Positions 45,190 through 50,894 of a DNA stretch of 64,000 bases are shown here, piece by piece (within the stretch, counting starts at the first letter, position 1; each line of letters opens with the position of its first letter). The translations under genes and the position numbers were made by a program. The notes beneath the pieces are model-generated. The model searched no databases, was not told the DNA's origin, and saw nothing but the letters and a program-made list of their open reading frames with translations. Location: assembly GCF_024223415.1 (NCBI RefSeq), contig NZ_CP100500.1. The stretch is one strand, 5' to 3'. Origin of the DNA: Escherichia coli (GTDB lineage: Bacteria > Pseudomonadota > Gammaproteobacteria > Enterobacterales > Enterobacteriaceae).

Positions 45190-45645
45190 TTATTCAACAC
45201 CTGAATCCCCCGCAGCTTCTCTCCCCTTTATAAAACGCCCCTTCCGGAATCCAGACCGCTGCAGTGCACGACGAAGATGACCGTATACCGTCTTGTCATT
45301 CTGCCCCGTCTCTTCTGTAATCTCCGCAATACTTAAACCTCTGTAATACCGGTTCAGTACCGCTCTGCGCTCTTCCAGCGTCAACACACCTCCGGCCGCT
45401 CTCAGATTCAGCATCGACTTATTCAGAATACAGCAGGCCTCTCCGGTAAAAAGAATACGAACAATATCTGTATACTCATCATCACAGAATACAAAATAAT
45501 ATCTGAATGACCTGCCTGACTGCACCCTTCTTCTGTCTGATATGGCATCTTCTATATATCTGATTCGACTGCTTACGGTTCCAAATATCTCTCGCAGGGC
45601 TTTTTCAAAATAAATATCTCTCGTCGCCAGGATTATATCCAGCAT
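45190..45645 (-). CDS. LuxR/GerE-type HTH transcriptional regulator (prophage accessory)
   Basis: 151-aa ORF; C-terminal LTLEERRAVLNRYYRGLSIAEITEETGQNDKTVYGHLRRALQR fits the GerE/LuxR HTH pattern; Arg codons almost all AGA/AGG/CGA and frequent ATA Ile. Confidence 0.6.
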   Translation of the reverse strand: MLDIILATRDIYFEKALREIFGTVSSRIRYIEDAISDRRRVQSGRSFRYYFVFCDDEYTDIVRILFTGEACCILNKSMLNLRAAGGVLTLEERRAVLNRYYRGLSIAEITEETGQNDKTVYGHLRRALQRSGFRKGRFIKGREAAGDSGVE

Positions 45646-45705: not shown

Positions 45706-46833
45706 TCAGAACTCAAAATTCACACCAGCATTCCACGATGCGGATGACCCACCTGCAGCAACTGCAACTTTTCCTGCCACATTCTCTGTGAAACGGTAGC
45801 CCACGCCCACCGCAATGGCCTGCTCATCACGGTAACCACCAACGGCTGCTGTCGCGTTAAATTTTCCAACACTGTATGGCTGGAAAAGACCGGCCAGTGC
45901 CGCGCTCTGGGCTGCACTCTCCCTTAACTCCTTCCGGTTCTCTTTAATCTGCTCCTGCATATTATTCATTCTCTCTGTCGCCATCTTCTGCCAGGCTTCC
46001 GTCAAATCCAGACGATGACTGTTATTCCTTATCGCTGCTGTATTTGAGGCTATTGCTGCATCCGTCTGCGCCCTGTTCTTCACAAGCACATCGCTGAGAT
46101 GTTCTGCCTGGCTTTTCACCTCGTTACGGACAGTACGCACACTGCTGTCTGTATATGTACGCGTCTCGTCCAGAACATCCGACTTCACCGCATCCGTGTA
46201 TTCCTGCGCAGAAGCCCTGGCAGCTGTAATATTACCGTTAAGTCTGTTTTCTGCCGATTCCACTCGACTCTTAGCATCAGCAACAGCATCACGGTAGACA
46301 GCTCCTATCTCACCGCGCAGGGCATCCCCCGACTCCCGTACAGCATCTGCAATGGCGTTGTCCATCTGTCCTTTTGTGGCCGCATCACTATCCTTAACAC
46401 CATCTGAAACATTTATAATCCGGCGGGTTTCCGGTGCACCATCAACTGAAAATCCATATCCTGAAGGACCGGCCCCTACAGAAAGTACATTGCTTTCTCC
46501 ATTCACCTGAGAGCCATACCCCAGAGCGACACTGTTGTCTGCATTAAAAACAGCTGTATTATTTCCCACAGCCATGGATTTATCCGCATCCCAAATTATT
46601 GCATCGGAACCAACAGCAAAGTTTTTTCCAGTAACACTACCATCACTGTTAAAATTTCCATTTCTGTCAACCACAGTTGCACTTTCAAGTGAATGAGTGC
46701 CATTATCAATCCAGATAATACCCGTCGATGACTCAGTAAGTGTTTTATGAGCCAAAGCCTGAGATGAGAGCAGCAGGGCCACACTCACTGCCAGCGCGCT
46801 TTTCTTTAAAAAAGCATCACGTCTTTTAAGCAT
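45706..46833 (-). CDS. trimeric autotransporter adhesin, Eib-like (E. coli immunoglobulin-binding protein family) candidate
   Basis: 375-aa product from MLKRRDAFLKKSALAVSVALLLSSQALA (signal peptide; SD AGGAG 9 nt upstream); coiled-coil stalk; C-terminal YadA-like anchor ...WNAGVNFEF; Eib genes are known prophage cargo; the ORF track extends 18 codons upstream. Confidence 0.7.
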   Translation of the reverse strand: MLKRRDAFLKKSALAVSVALLLSSQALAHKTLTESSTGIIWIDNGTHSLESATVVDRNGNFNSDGSVTGKNFAVGSDAIIWDADKSMAVGNNTAVFNADNSVALGYGSQVNGESNVLSVGAGPSGYGFSVDGAPETRRIINVSDGVKDSDAATKGQMDNAIADAVRESGDALRGEIGAVYRDAVADAKSRVESAENRLNGNITAARASAQEYTDAVKSDVLDETRTYTDSSVRTVRNEVKSQAEHLSDVLVKNRAQTDAAIASNTAAIRNNSHRLDLTEAWQKMATERMNNMQEQIKENRKELRESAAQSAALAGLFQPYSVGKFNATAAVGGYRDEQAIAVGVGYRFTENVAGKVAVAAGGSSASWNAGVNFEF

Positions 46834-47181
46834 TCTGTTATTCTCCTGTATTATTACTTCACCAGCCAGAACGGTAGTGCGGAGCAAAAATACAGTGATA
46901 AGAATCCTCTTTTATTAATTTAATAATATCAGGAATATTATTGTGTATAATATGCGCCCTCAATTTAAGCAGCAGAAAAGCAATGACGCGAAAATCATTA
47001 AAATACATAAAGATAAAACATCATAACTATAATTATAATAAGCGCGCTTATTTTAGCATCTGAACATTTAAAGTACTGCTATCACAAAACAATAAAAATC
47101 CTGGGTAATATCTCTGATGATTGAATGAGAAATTCACGATGTCTGGTGAGAATTCTGTTCAAAACGAGGAATGCAGACGTA

Positions 47182-47268
47182 CACGTGGCACGCACCACGT
47201 GATCCGTAGAAAAGCCTCTTGTTACGAATTTCGTAAACCGCACGTCTGTCTGGTCGTGCGGATTTTTT
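47182..47268 (+). other. three consecutive hairpins ending in an intrinsic terminator (candidate structured RNA 3' end)
   Basis: CACGTGG-cacgca-CCACGTG (47182-47201); perfect 15-bp palindrome TTACGAATTTCGTAA (47222-47236); CCGCACG-tctgtctggt-CGTGCGG + ATTTTTT (47238-47268). Confidence 0.45.
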
Positions 47269-47454
47269 ATCCGTCAACTTCACATGAAACCCGCCAGAGC
47301 ACTGTTTCCGGATTCAGACATCAGGCATATTATCATCCACAATATCGTGAACAAGATCACCTTTTTGCAATTCCTTTATTGATCGAAAGCAGTTAATCAC
47401 TGAAATTAATTACCGGAGTGAAAGCATTACTGCATAATAAATATAGATCCTTGC

Positions 47455-47488
47455 CCCCCTCTGACAGAATTTTCAGAGGGGTTTTTTT
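47455..47488 (+). terminator. strong plus-strand intrinsic terminator
   Basis: CCCCCTCTGA-cagaattt-TCAGAGGGGG followed by T7; plus-strand only. Confidence 0.65.
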
Positions 47489-47496
47489 TATCAGTT

Positions 47497-48072
47497 TCAC
47501 CATCCAACCCTGTACGCCAGAATGGTTTCACTGTCACTCAGTTCTGCTATTGCCTTTTTCATCTCCCTTTGCCTTATATGTATTTCAAGGCCTTTCCTGA
47601 ACATCGCTTTACCAGCAGCATCACTCAGGGATATCAGTTCATCTGCCGTCATCGGTACATCATTATTCTCTGCGTCCGTCCAGAAAAATCCTTCCGGCAA
47701 CACTCCGCCTCTGGCCGCTGATGCCGACATTCCAAGACGTGTCATGGCTTCCTTTCCATAATCCCATTTCCGTCCTCTGTGCTCAAAAACATACCCTGAC
47801 GCCTCCATCGCATCACGCCAGGCATTTATCTCCGCGTTTTTCATCCTGCGTGCTTCTTCCACAGCCATATCATCATTTGCCCGGTACTCACCTACCGGCC
47901 CTGCATCACCTCTTATGCAGGCTTCAAATATTTCACGACCGTAAGACTCAGGATCATCCGCACTTGCTGTAAATACACATTCTGTTTCCGCGTCTGAAAA
48001 CTTCACTATACAGTTTATGGTCGTATGACCCCTGTCAGCCCACACTGGTGACGTGATTTTATCGACCTTCAT
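47497..48072 (-). CDS. hypothetical phage protein at the tail-fibre-assembly (tfa) position
   Basis: 191-aa ORF immediately downstream of the stf-like gene with SD GGGGAGAAA; does not resemble lambda Tfa as far as I can recall; assignment is positional. Confidence 0.4.
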   Translation of the reverse strand: MKVDKITSPVWADRGHTTINCIVKFSDAETECVFTASADDPESYGREIFEACIRGDAGPVGEYRANDDMAVEEARRMKNAEINAWRDAMEASGYVFEHRGRKWDYGKEAMTRLGMSASAARGGVLPEGFFWTDAENNDVPMTADELISLSDAAGKAMFRKGLEIHIRQREMKKAIAELSDSETILAYRVGW

Positions 48073-48086
48073 TCATTTCTCCCCTG

Positions 48087-49892
48087 TCACCGTATTCTCT
48101 GAAACAGGCCCCAAATCGTCCCAATGATATTATTCACTGTCATGTTAGTTGTGCATAACATCCATGTACCAAGCATAGGATTGCCAAATAAAAAGCGGAT
48201 ATCTGTAAGTTTATCCGATGACGACGACACAATAACGGCCTGTCTGATACGATACCCGGGTATTTCACGGGTATTTGTTACCTCATGATTTCGTTCTATG
48301 ATCCCCAGAACATAAGACCCCACGGAATAAACACTTCCGACGCTCGCTGGCTGCCCCGGCTGTCCCTGTGGTCCTGCCGGGCCGCGTTCACCTGTATACC
48401 CTCTTGGCCCCTGAGGACCTGCCGGGCCGCGTTCACCTGTATCCCCCTTTAGTCCCTGTGGACCTGCCGGACCGCGTTCACCTGTATCGCCCTTTGGTCC
48501 CTGTGGACCACGCTCCCCCTGGGCTCCCAGCTCTTTCCATTCAGACCAGGGGCCATTACCGGTAAAATTACCAGTAACAGTTCTTACGAACTTTCGTGGT
48601 GGGTTCCAGGTTGTATATTCATGCTGGCAATATCCCCATGCACCAACTCTTACCTGAAGATAACCCGCTCTCTGAATCGGATAATTATTTTCTCGTGTAG
48701 CCCCACTGTCTGATGGCTGATAATAATCACCCTGATCGGTCACTCGTCCCAGTCGGTTCAGATCACCATTCAGCAGTTGTCCACGGGCTGACTCTCCTCT
48801 TGGTCCCTGAGGACCTGCCGGACCGCGTGCTCCTGTTTCACCTTTTGCTCCCTGTGGACCTGTCGGACCGCGTTCACCTGTTTCACCTTTTGGTCCCTGT
48901 GGTCCTGCCGGGCCGCGTTCACCTGTTTCACCCTTTGCTCCCTGTGGACCTTCCGGGCCACGTTCACCTGTATCCCCCTTTGGTCCCTGAGGACCTGCCG
49001 GGCCACGTTCACCTGTATCGCCCTTTGATCCCTGTGGACCTGCCGGGCCGCGTTCACCTGTATCCCCCTTTGGTCCCTGTGGACCTCCCGGATCTCCTTT
49101 ATCCCCCTTAGGGCCTTTTTCTCCTCGCTCACCCTTTTCTCCCTTCAGACCCTGAGGGCCTTCCGGACCACGTGCACCTGTTTCGCCCTTTGCTCCCTGT
49201 GGACCTGCCGGGCCGCGTTCACCTGTTTCGCCCTTTGCTCCCTGTGGACCTGCCGGGCCGCGTGCACCTGTTTCACCCTTTGGTCCCTGTGGACCTGCCG
49301 GGCCGCGTTCACCTGTATCGCCCTTTAGTCCCTGTGGACCTGCCGGACCGCGTTCACCTGTTTCACCTTTTGGTCCCTGTGGTCCTGCCGGGCCACGTGC
49401 TCCTGTTTCACCTTTTGGCCCCTGTGGCCCGGTAATGCCTCTTTCACCACGAGCGCCGGTATCCCCTTTCTCTCCTCGTGGTCCCCGGGCAGATGCTGCT
49501 CGTTTCCGGGCTTCCTCCGCCTCAGATGCCGCGGACTCTGCTCTGTGCAGTATGGACTGCACCACAGCCTCCAGCTCTGACAACGCCTTCGGATAATAAG
49601 GAGCATCTTCCAGCTCCATCAGAAATTTATTCAGTGTTCCCGGTGAAGAATCCTCCCTGACCACGATATCTCCCACATACGAAGGACGGTAACCTTCTGT
49701 ATTGAGTGTCACCCTGTATATTCCTGGCTCCACATCCATACTGTAACTCCCCGTCTCTTCCGGCATGCCATAAGCCACTGTCGTGGCGATGACTGTCTCG
49801 CTGGTTCTCTTCGCTTTCAGCTCAATAATGCATCCCGGTACCGGTTTTCCGGTTCCGTCCCTCAGCACGCCTGAAATTTTTACAGCCGCCAT
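48087..49892 (-). CDS. stf: side tail fibre protein (Stf-like) with collagen-like G-X-Y repeats
   Basis: 601-aa ORF; N-terminus [18 protein letters not shown]... resembles lambda Stf N-domain; two long blocks of GPxGxKGxTGxRG repeats; distinct C-terminal domain. Confidence 0.8.
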
Positions 49893-49964: not shown

Positions 49965-50210
49965 TTACTTCACGCACGAAACTTTCGTAAACATATCTTC
50001 ACTCACCCACTGACCATAAAATCTCGGAGCTGATACTTTATACACAGTGCCGCTTTTCGTTTCTATTTTCCCTGTAAGATCTACCGTATAAGCTCGCTGT
50101 AAAACCCCGGGACTCAGCACACCGGTGCACCGGACTCTCTCCGTAACGGAACGGTACCCCGCGCAACCTGATACAAGAAACAGCAAAAAAGTGCAGACGA
50201 TTATTTTCAT
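49965..50210 (-). CDS. small lipoprotein, Cor-like candidate
   Basis: 81-aa ORF with signal peptide and lipobox LVSGC; sits at the lom/cor position; no homology recalled. Confidence 0.5.
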   Translation of the reverse strand: MKIIVCTFLLFLVSGCAGYRSVTERVRCTGVLSPGVLQRAYTVDLTGKIETKSGTVYKVSAPRFYGQWVSEDMFTKVSCVK

Positions 50211-50231: not shown

Positions 50232-50894
50232 TCAGTACGCATCATAAATTTCTGCATTTATGTAATAACAGAGGTTATTAACAACACCTGAATTATCATT
50301 GGGCGCCGCTACGTTATCTTCAGCAAAAGTTGACTGACGCCATAACTGTGAGTTTCTGGCATTAAAACTGGCGGTATACCAGTAATAACTCTCCCCTTCC
50401 TGAACTGTCGTCCACTGGGTACACCCCGGCATTACGGCCACATCATGTCCCACACTGATCGGTACATCCTTTTCCCATATTCGCGTCATTTTTACTTCCA
50501 GTGGCAGCATTTCCGTGTTCCAGACCACCCTGCCATGACTGTCGCACAACTGTATTCCCCATTGCGGCCATACATTCACCATGTTGGCAAAAACATAAAC
50601 AACATATGTGCTGTCCTGTTCCATGCCCGGCTCCTGCCCTGTACCAGCGCTGAAAATGTCATACTGCCAGGTACCGTTAAGCTGAACCATTTCACCATGG
50701 AAGGACTGATTACCGCTTATCTGTTTAATAAAAATCACGCAACGATAATTCGTCGGCACCCCAGTGTCGATAAACTGCATCACCGCATCACGCGCACTCA
50801 GTGTGAAATGAAAACGGCGCACAAGGTTCAGTGGCGGCGCAACAGGTGATATCCATTCTCTCCCCCGCTCATCAGTTAATTTAAGTGCAAACAT
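50232..50894 (-). CDS. hypothetical tail-associated protein
   Basis: 220-aa ORF; start ATG overlaps stop of upstream 86-aa ORF (ATGA). Confidence 0.55.
   Translation of the reverse strand: MFALKLTDERGREWISPVAPPLNLVRRFHFTLSARDAVMQFIDTGVPTNYRCVIFIKQISGNQSFHGEMVQLNGTWQYDIFSAGTGQEPGMEQDSTYVVYVFANMVNVWPQWGIQLCDSHGRVVWNTEMLPLEVKMTRIWEKDVPISVGHDVAVMPGCTQWTTVQEGESYYWYTASFNARNSQLWRQSTFAEDNVAAPNDNSGVVNNLCYYINAEIYDAY

Follow-up and report, generated by a model that had tools for sequence, protein, structure and literature searches.

A probable DUF4376-type assembly chaperone for a collagen-like side tail fibre of an Escherichia coli prophage, apparently matched to the fibre tip through its N-domain

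Proteins carrying a DUF4376 domain have been described as partners of phage receptor-binding fibres. The Alteromonas myovirus V22 encodes gp27 immediately behind its receptor-binding fibre gp26; a cell-binding fibre is obtained only when gp27 is present, but gp27 leaves the mature fibre (PMC7289586); gp9 of the schitovirus A5 co-elutes with its fibre and has been proposed to act as a transient cap (PMC10579305). As described in the latter report, the A5 and V22 chaperones have three strands at the N-terminus, which pair with the fibre head, and a helical body bearing beta-hairpin 'tentacles'; its authors liken them to the intramolecular chaperones of K1F endosialidase and of the L-shaped fibre of T5, in which a helical core and beta-hairpin 'tentacles' are found at the fibre C-terminus (PMC10579305). 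In the CJIE1 prophages of Campylobacter, the H-fibre requires the downstream DUF4376 gene to work as a receptor-binding protein (PMC7882524). For the tail-fibre assembly (Tfa) proteins, a two-module logic has been put forward, consisting of a variable, fibre-binding N-terminal part and a conserved C-terminal part (North et al. [quoted passage not shown] The structure of gp24-gp25 from cyanophage Pam3 reveals a trimeric chaperone, gp25, that grips the fibre gp24 close to the tip with its N-terminal beta domains and has a trimer core made up of its C-terminal helices (PMC9608196).

The window analyzed here, a 64,000-nt stretch of E. coli DNA, contains chromosomal sequence (including aspS and a yecD-like gene) to approximately 44.2 kb and, beyond that point, the right arm of a lambdoid prophage. 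The order of the right arm is tape measure, L, K, I, J, two small membrane or Cor-like genes, a side tail-fibre gene, and an ORF of 191 aa, beyond which lie genes for an Eib-like adhesin, an HTH protein, and DinI. No second Tfa or DUF4376 gene was found within the 64 kb. The features of the locus are collected in Table 1.

Table 1. Positions within the 64,000-nt window of the 191-aa ORF, its domains, and the adjoining features
Feature	Position	Strand	Basis or remark
191-aa ORF, DUF4376-type tail-fibre assembly chaperone candidate	47497..48072, stop codon included	-	ATG start
N-domain, residues 1-66, proposed fibre-tip-binding adaptor 'class A'	47875..48072	-	AlphaFold2 (AF2), homology, tip co-variation
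C-domain, residues 67-191, DUF4376 module, proposed oligomerisation/registration	47500..47874	-	Pfam, AF2
Intergenic spacer CAGGGGAGAAATGA (coding strand), 14 nt	48073..48086	-	carries Shine-Dalgarno; direct sequence reading
Collagen-like side tail-fibre gene, 601 aa, presumed client	48087..49892	-	Pfam, PHROGs
Fibre C-terminal tip, residues 514-601, class A, proposed site for the chaperone N-domain	48090..48353	-	tip HMM
GC-rich hairpin, 9 pairs, 15 nt past the stop codon of the 191-aa ORF	47456..47481	.	

Direct reading of the DNA bore out the boundaries, length, 14-bp gap, and strong Shine-Dalgarno sequence that an earlier sequence-only reading had given for this ORF, and placed it on the minus strand. 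As that reading also held, the gene occupies the tfa position, directly after the 601-aa fibre gene and on the same strand. The fibre gene stops at TGA (48087-48089) and the 191-aa ORF starts at ATG (48070-48072), preceded by the Shine-Dalgarno sequence GGGGAG, whose GGAG lies 6 nt ahead of the start codon; a gap this short, together with the GGAG, implies tight co-expression with the fibre gene. Among 36 related loci of the class defined below as class A, the gap between the fibre gene and the class A gene is 9-20 nt, and in P2-like loci it is -1 nt; close spacing to the fibre gene is kept across dozens of loci and unrelated phage types. At the other end of the ORF, the hairpin has a T-run on its plus-strand side, and thus scores as a terminator for convergent plus-strand transcription; read on the ORF's own strand, it is preceded by an A-run.

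The 191-aa ORF is a genuine gene rather than a fortuitous reading frame, since the identical protein is recorded on approximately 595 contigs, homologues extend from 99% down to approximately 25% identity, and 687 cluster representatives match it at E<=1e-3. In RefSeq, its E. coli copies are named 'DUF4376 domain-containing protein' and lie beside a 'prophage tail fiber N-terminal domain-containing protein'. The latter, the 601-aa fibre, matched the Pfam models phage_tail_N (E=2.7e-39), Collagen (E=1.5e-48, in six stretches), and CarboxypepD_reg, and belongs to phrog_366, tail fiber protein (E=2e-119).

Pfam assigned the 191-aa protein to DUF4376 (PF14301) alone, with 74.1 bits against a cutoff of 25 (E=1.5e-20, residues 73-180), while neither Caudo_TAP (PF02413) nor Caudo_TAP_N (PF28596) matched at E<=0.1. 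Lambda Tfa (147.6 bits), Mu U (127 bits), and Mu U' (128 bits), run as positive controls, returned Caudo_TAP only and lacked DUF4376. Consistent with this separation, BLASTP aligned the protein with lambda Tfa (E=0.043) and Mu U (E=0.025) only in short segments at chance level. Comparison by hhalign with a lambda and Mu Tfa profile gave probabilities of 0.04% for the C-domain and 0.09% for the N-domain; this profile was shallow (Neff 2.2) because the database search had returned close lambda relatives only, so that an extremely remote homology between DUF4376 and Tfa could still exist. Membership in the Caudo_TAP family is ruled out by Pfam, BLASTP, and hhalign together, and by these sequence comparisons the protein is a DUF4376 protein, of a class distinct from the Caudo_TAP Tfa proteins of lambda and Mu. 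The sequence-only reading, which had doubted that the protein resembles the lambda/Rac Tfa family and had named both Pfam families for comparison, was right in that respect. The published view that Mu Tfa contains DUF4376 (PMC7882524) is supported neither by Pfam, which recognizes only Caudo_TAP there, nor by the profile comparison.

The PHROGs matches of the 191-aa protein divide into families that cover only its N-terminal part and families that cover only its C-terminal part, in addition to phrog_1141, which it matches over its full length (E=5e-62). PHROGs labels the family of this protein 'tail fiber protein'. Likewise, among the matches listed for the 687 representatives, the proteins are small and carry the region matching the C-part of the target at their own C-terminal end, while their N-parts vary in length. 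No enzyme, immunity, or defence family was matched in Pfam, PHROGs, NCBIfam, or PADLOC (0 families in the last), and a role in defence or immunity was rejected; an unrelated function such as methyltransferase or immunity protein, which the sequence-only reading had raised as the contrary case, thus found no match.

An AF2 model built from a 107-sequence alignment (pLDDT 96.7, pTM 0.76) predicts two domains. The N-domain consists of three beta-strands (residues 3-11, 18-25, and 32-37) and a helix (43-54), followed by a short linker; the C-domain comprises a helix (67-91), a hairpin (94-105), a second helix (107-121), a second hairpin (130-140), and a long helix (143-176). This fold agrees with the published description of the A5 and V22 chaperones (PMC10579305), an agreement of one prediction with another. 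Searches for a solved DUF4376 structure, using either the single protein sequence or the 107-sequence profile, returned no match, nor did Foldseek find a significant match for the model in the PDB. Structural matches in BFVD were to DUF4376 proteins from phages of Pseudomonas, Bacillus, Synechococcus, Enterococcus, and Erwinia. We also modelled the fibre tip and the chaperone candidate as a single chain joined by a 25-aa Gly/Ser linker, using a 17-row paired alignment; this model (pLDDT 78, pTM 0.49) showed no confident docking, the real assembly being expected to be 3:3, and its tip (pLDDT 58-77) was predicted to be all-beta.

The two predicted domains are also separable in evolution. In the target, a class A N-domain is joined to DUF4376, and in lambda Tfa, a lambda-type N-half is joined to a Caudo_TAP C-half. 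The two remaining combinations were found in other proteins. P0333 and P0383 have a class A N-domain and a Caudo_TAP C-half (49.3 and 51.5 bits in Pfam); the N-domain of P0333 is 51% identical to that of the target (E=6e-27), and its C-half is 48% identical to the C-terminus of Mu U' (E=2e-16). Conversely, P0120, a 241-aa protein of E. coli, carries a lambda Tfa N-half (Pfam Caudo_TAP_N; 57% identical to lambda Tfa over residues 1-120) joined to a DUF4376 domain 63% identical to that of the target. Its gene occupies the slot of P2 gene G, where its start overlaps the stop of an H-like fibre gene. Therefore, all four combinations of the two N-terminal and two C-terminal types exist naturally. 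A further arrangement is seen in E217, where gp47 (142 aa), encoded 2 nt past the fibre gene gp46, has a class A N-domain (36% identity, E=6e-12); its C-part, left unassigned here, resembles the C-part of lambda Tfa only weakly, if co-linearly (probability 8%), and shows no link with DUF4376. The earlier description of the protein as not Tfa-like consequently stands for its sequence family but not for its layout, which follows the two-module plan of Tfa, with modules that have recombined with canonical Tfa halves.

What the N-terminal module follows was apparent when 91 DUF4376 genes, from 80 viral loci plus others, were compared with the gene directly upstream of each (the viral locus search used a 15-sequence alignment). 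The N-domains constitute three unrelated classes, as do the fibre tips, and when N-class is tabulated against tip class for the 63 loci whose fibre is full-length, the result is strictly block-diagonal: (i) N-class A occurs with A tips, of the ...LFQRI type, in 36 loci (two tip clusters, 34+2 loci); (ii) N-class B with B tips in 21 loci; and (iii) N-class C, which is lambda-type, with lambda Stf-type tips in six loci. The class A tip has the framework VGS[YF]xL...GTW..C...LFQRI, which in the 601-aa fibre reads VGSYxL...GTW..C...GLFQRI. An HMM of this tip had the 601-aa fibre as its single match in the window (E=1e-20); it also matched E217 gp46 (E=3.6e-6, the next background ORF scoring E=1.5), and it gave no match to lambda Stf, Mu S, or a P2-like H fibre.

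Within class A (33 unique pairs), tip identity correlated with N-domain identity (Mantel r=0.86; partial r of 0.76 for the N-domain and 0.17 for the C-domain), figures that are inflated because the fibre and chaperone genes are adjacent and the loci are related. In 36 class A pairs, the C-domains are at least 80% identical and the N-domains less than 50% identical, which indicates recombination at the domain junction. The independent evidence for pairing comes from a few cases, about five, in which a module appears in a different context. For instance, the fibres upstream of P0333 and P0383 (loci L092 and L093) also end in the class A framework, and the fibre encoded ahead of P0120 matches lambda Stf at 51% identity across its final ~190 residues, the closing NIAFNYIVRLA among them. 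Class A N-domains and class A tips occur together on four shafts (the collagen-like shaft, E217 gp46, the Collar+Big_2 fibre of L093, and the fibre of L092), and class A N-domains occur with three C-modules (DUF4376, the Caudo_TAP C-half, and the C-part of E217 gp47). In every combination found, tip type is predicted by the type of N-domain and not by the type of shaft or C-module.

These comparisons also bear on the suggestion, made in the sequence-only reading, that the protein is a different class of chaperone matched to the collagen-like fibre. The distinct class is upheld by the DUF4376 assignment; the match to collagen is not. Collagen-like fibres accompany class A in 35 of 36 loci and class B in all 21, but class C in none of six, and, as class C DUF4376 loci lack collagen runs, we reject collagen as the thing to which the chaperone is matched. 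DUF4376 is likewise encoded after fibres that are not collagen-like, namely the P2 H-like fibres, which have a lambda Stf-type tip, and V22 gp26. The best-supported reading of the sequence data is that the 191-aa protein is matched, through its own N-domain, to the C-terminal tip of the fibre, a segment of ~85 aa.

We conclude that the 191-aa ORF probably encodes the assembly chaperone of the adjoining, upstream collagen-like side tail fibre, with the N-domain acting on the tip and DUF4376 registering the chains; we assign this reading a probability of roughly 0.78. In the mechanism that we propose, the chaperone would be produced together with the fibre, and its small beta-sheet N-domain would bind the C-terminal tip, one chaperone per chain. 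The DUF4376 domain, with its helical body and beta-hairpins, would then self-associate and put three fibre C-termini into register, upon which the tip would trimerise and the collagen triple helix would zip from its C-terminal end. The chaperone might afterwards depart, or remain for a time as a distal cap. The physical binding, the folding from C- to N-terminus, and this fate of the chaperone are all proposed steps, and trimerisation by DUF4376 is suggested by published AlphaFold-Multimer models and by analogy. A collagen-like shaft fits nucleation at the C-terminus, as the PfC tip of an EHEC prophage fibre was shown to act as a trimerisation domain from which the triple helix nucleates anew (PMC3368898). 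Two observations argue against a strict need for a chaperone: the recombinant EHEC collagen-like fibre, which has a different tip (PfC), trimerises alone (PMC3368898), and in A5 the fibre works even when its DUF4376 chaperone is absent (PMC10579305).

An alternative, compatible with a role in folding, is that the protein is a permanent component of the virion at the distal end of the fibre and shapes host range, either as an adhesin or receptor-binding accessory (the latter also raised in the sequence-only reading), as is gp38 of T2, T6, and S16, or as a bound Tfa, as in Mu. The PHROGs label of families containing the protein and the co-elution of A5 gp9 would both fit such a component, as would TfaMu, which is cited as staying on the fibre tip and binding LPS (in PMC9887876 and PMC7289586); further, a tip-specific N-domain makes stable binding plausible. 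However, the functional fibre of V22 is completely free of gp27 (PMC7289586), and E217 gp47 is absent from the report of the E217 virion structure, in which the distal fibre is unresolved. The exposed C-module, where an adhesin would be expected to vary, is conserved across Escherichia, Alteromonas, and Bacillus hosts, the part that does vary tracks the fibre tip and not the host, and the AF2 model contains no gp38-like hypervariable or glycine-rich receptor-binding segment. On balance, we regard a permanent place in the virion as unlikely.

We consider it very improbable that the protein is a structural segment or connector of the fibre, or a second, short fibre subunit, with no chaperone role. 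The designation 'tail fiber protein', which several phage records share with PHROGs, and the annotation of a SerU-LTIIb relative as 'stf2: side tail fiber' would agree with such a subunit, but the predicted small beta-sheet and helical hairpin body contain no fibrous, beta-helical, or collagen repeats, its modules have recombined with parts of genuine Tfa chaperones, and the best-studied relative, V22 gp27, is not in the mature fibre. Finally, although morons are known to occur in the interval that separates the tail genes from the end of a prophage, with the Eib-like adhesin here just downstream and Cor-like and membrane proteins upstream of the fibre, the idea of an unrelated moron (immunity, exclusion, defence, or enzyme) merely placed after the fibre gene is close to refuted by the lack of a match to any enzyme, immunity, or defence family in Pfam, NCBIfam, or PADLOC, by the conserved close spacing, and by co-variation of the protein with the fibre tip.

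Hundreds of E. coli genomes label the gene only 'DUF4376 domain-containing protein', where 'tail-fibre assembly chaperone' would be reasonable. The engineering of retargeted phages, tailocins, and fibre-based reagents needs the right chaperone co-expressed with the tip, and the pairing rule, by which the class of N-domain corresponds to the class of tip while the C-module is interchangeable, offers a simple guide to choosing or building one. The general understanding of tail-fibre assembly is unchanged by these results. DUF4376 chaperones are already known as a kind; the module swap and the pairing rule constitute the modest value added here.

More speculatively, DUF4376 and the Caudo_TAP C-half may be two unrelated, interchangeable 'registration' modules that recombine freely with tip-specific N-terminal adaptors. 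The DUF4376 version, a prefoldin-like helical hairpin with beta-hairpin tentacles, might act as a trimeric cap, holding and perhaps masking the receptor-binding tip up to the moment of release. We offer this idea tentatively and would not yet favour it; if it were true, the N-domain alone would tell which tip is served, across siphovirus, myovirus, and P2-like fibres.

The likeness to prefoldin appears to be a structural resemblance rather than a sign of membership: the prefoldin subunits, and likewise the Skp/OmpH-like chaperone, have only 4-15% sequence identity to the target, the Foldseek E-values are not significant, an extra helix lies between the hairpins, and helical hairpins draw many mid-Z matches. 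Intramolecular chaperones of the K1F and T5 kind (Peptidase_S74 type) are recognized by a location at the C-terminus of the fibre polypeptide itself and by autoproteolytic release, whereas the target is a separate ORF; no such domain was matched by Pfam on the target or the fibre, or appeared among the top structural matches. Pam3 gp25, while absent from the top structural matches of the target model, is a solved example of the mechanism proposed here.

Among the DUF4376 systems, V22 gp27 resembles the target in several respects. Its DUF4376 domain is also C-terminal, scores 76.2 bits (74.1 for the target), and covers the same model positions; it is 195 aa long as compared with 191, and its gene begins 12 nt after the fibre gene as compared with 14. 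Against the enterobacterial profile, hhalign aligned it over 107 co-linear columns (E=1.2e-4, probability 55%), while pairwise BLASTP barely detected the relationship (E=0.005 over 23 residues). The N-domain and the fibre tip of V22 and A5 differ from those of the target, as do the fibres, which are knob fibres of a myovirus and a schitovirus rather than the collagen-like side fibre of a siphovirus; further, the V22 and A5 chaperones have been studied experimentally, and the target is known here from its sequence and a predicted model. In CJIE1, a DUF4376 protein likewise fills the slot after the fibre gene, and host, fibre, and N-domain differ. In PhiR5_1, an active phage of E. coli C, a 60%-identical gene follows a 523-aa collagen-like fibre and was deposited as 'tail fiber assembly protein'.

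The target shares with lambda Tfa, Mu U, and P2 G its gene position, a similar size, the two-module logic, and the exchange of modules. It differs from them in that neither domain has detectable sequence or profile homology to theirs, and in that the DUF4376 module, of ~125 aa, has two beta-hairpins, whereas a published AF2 prediction shows the TfaMu C-half as two helices (PMC9608196). The position after the fibre gene and the two-module layout support, rather than membership in the Tfa family, the statement that the target works like a Tfa.

Several features flank the fibre and chaperone genes in the window or occur at the comparison loci.

Features of the window and of two comparison loci
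Feature	Locus	Position	Strand	Remarks
Small sigma-70 region-4-like HTH protein gene	window	45190-45645	-	next after the adhesin gene
YadA-family trimeric autotransporter adhesin gene	window	45706-46887	-	YadA_anchor E=2.4e-16; just downstream of the DUF4376 gene
Promoter-like site	window	47064-47035	-	in the spacer 46888-47496
Promoter-like site	window	47467-47440	-	in the spacer 46888-47496
GC-rich hairpin	window	47456-47481		in the spacer 46888-47496; T-run on + strand
Non-collagen stretch in fibre, ~85 aa, ...WSEWKELG	window	48540-48795	-	residues about 367-452; separates two collagen tracts
81-aa lipoprotein-like ORF	window	49965-50210	-	in the interval from J to the fibre gene; PHROG hits to superinfection-exclusion proteins of the Cor type, weak (E=8e-7)
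220-aa "membrane associated protein" ORF	window	50232-50894	-	in the same J-to-fibre interval; phrog_425 E=3e-27
Two tandem DUF4376 genes after a single collagen-like fibre	L007	3886-5672		E. coli CP022279 prophage adjoining trpA/ompW
gp47, 142 aa, annotated "tail fiber protein"	L090	4501-4929		Pseudomonas phage E217; after the tail-fibre gene

Placed at the end of the prophage, the adhesin and HTH protein genes resemble a pair of morons. The adhesin has distant relatives in EibC/D/E, immunoglobulin-binding proteins of prophages (35-37% identity over ~70%). The TTG start given for it probably lies too far upstream; the ORF contains a signal-peptide-like segment, with an internal Met ahead of it. 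No convincing ORF was found in the ~600-nt AT-rich spacer that separates the adhesin gene from the DUF4376 gene (47497-48072). Beyond the fibre gene, PADLOC returned no matches for either the 81-aa or the 220-aa ORF.

The module of fibre, chaperone, and adhesin recurs in E. coli B771 (NZ_CP120557), with 98.4% identity to the window over 3 kb. Its neighbors in B771 are mltF/tadA/yfhH, whereas those in the window are aspS and a yecD-like gene; the module is therefore carried by prophages that have integrated at different chromosomal positions.

Pfam gave no match for the non-collagen stretch of the 601-aa fibre, and the shorter (367 aa) fibre of the CP022279 prophage lacks it. Immediately 3' of that fibre lies the first of the tandem DUF4376 genes, which encodes a 201-aa protein with a class A N-domain, one of the three N-domain types that are each paired with their own class of fibre tip. 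The second (P0073, 223 aa) has a class B N-domain and is preceded by a 70-aa ORF, and this arrangement may be the leftover of a second cassette of fibre tip and chaperone. At many other class B loci, too, the upstream gene is merely a ~77-aa ORF. In P0360, a protein of 147 aa recovered in the homolog searches, residues 1-59 are the chaperone N-domain of class A, and a fibre tip of the same class, reading ...IYSIGTYIIAAL...GLFQRAY, follows without a break; this union of the two partners could have arisen by deletion or recombination, or could be an artefact of assembly.

With regard to known chaperones, the Mu U gene product has been said to contain DUF4376 (PMC7882524). We did not reproduce this assignment, as Pfam searches of Mu U, Mu U', and lambda Tfa returned Caudo_TAP only. 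In Pseudomonas phage E217, gp47 goes unmentioned in the virion structure paper. Because gp47 bears a chaperone-type N-domain, and the E217 fibre has the matching tip, gp47 is probably the assembly chaperone of the fibre in Pbunaviruses.
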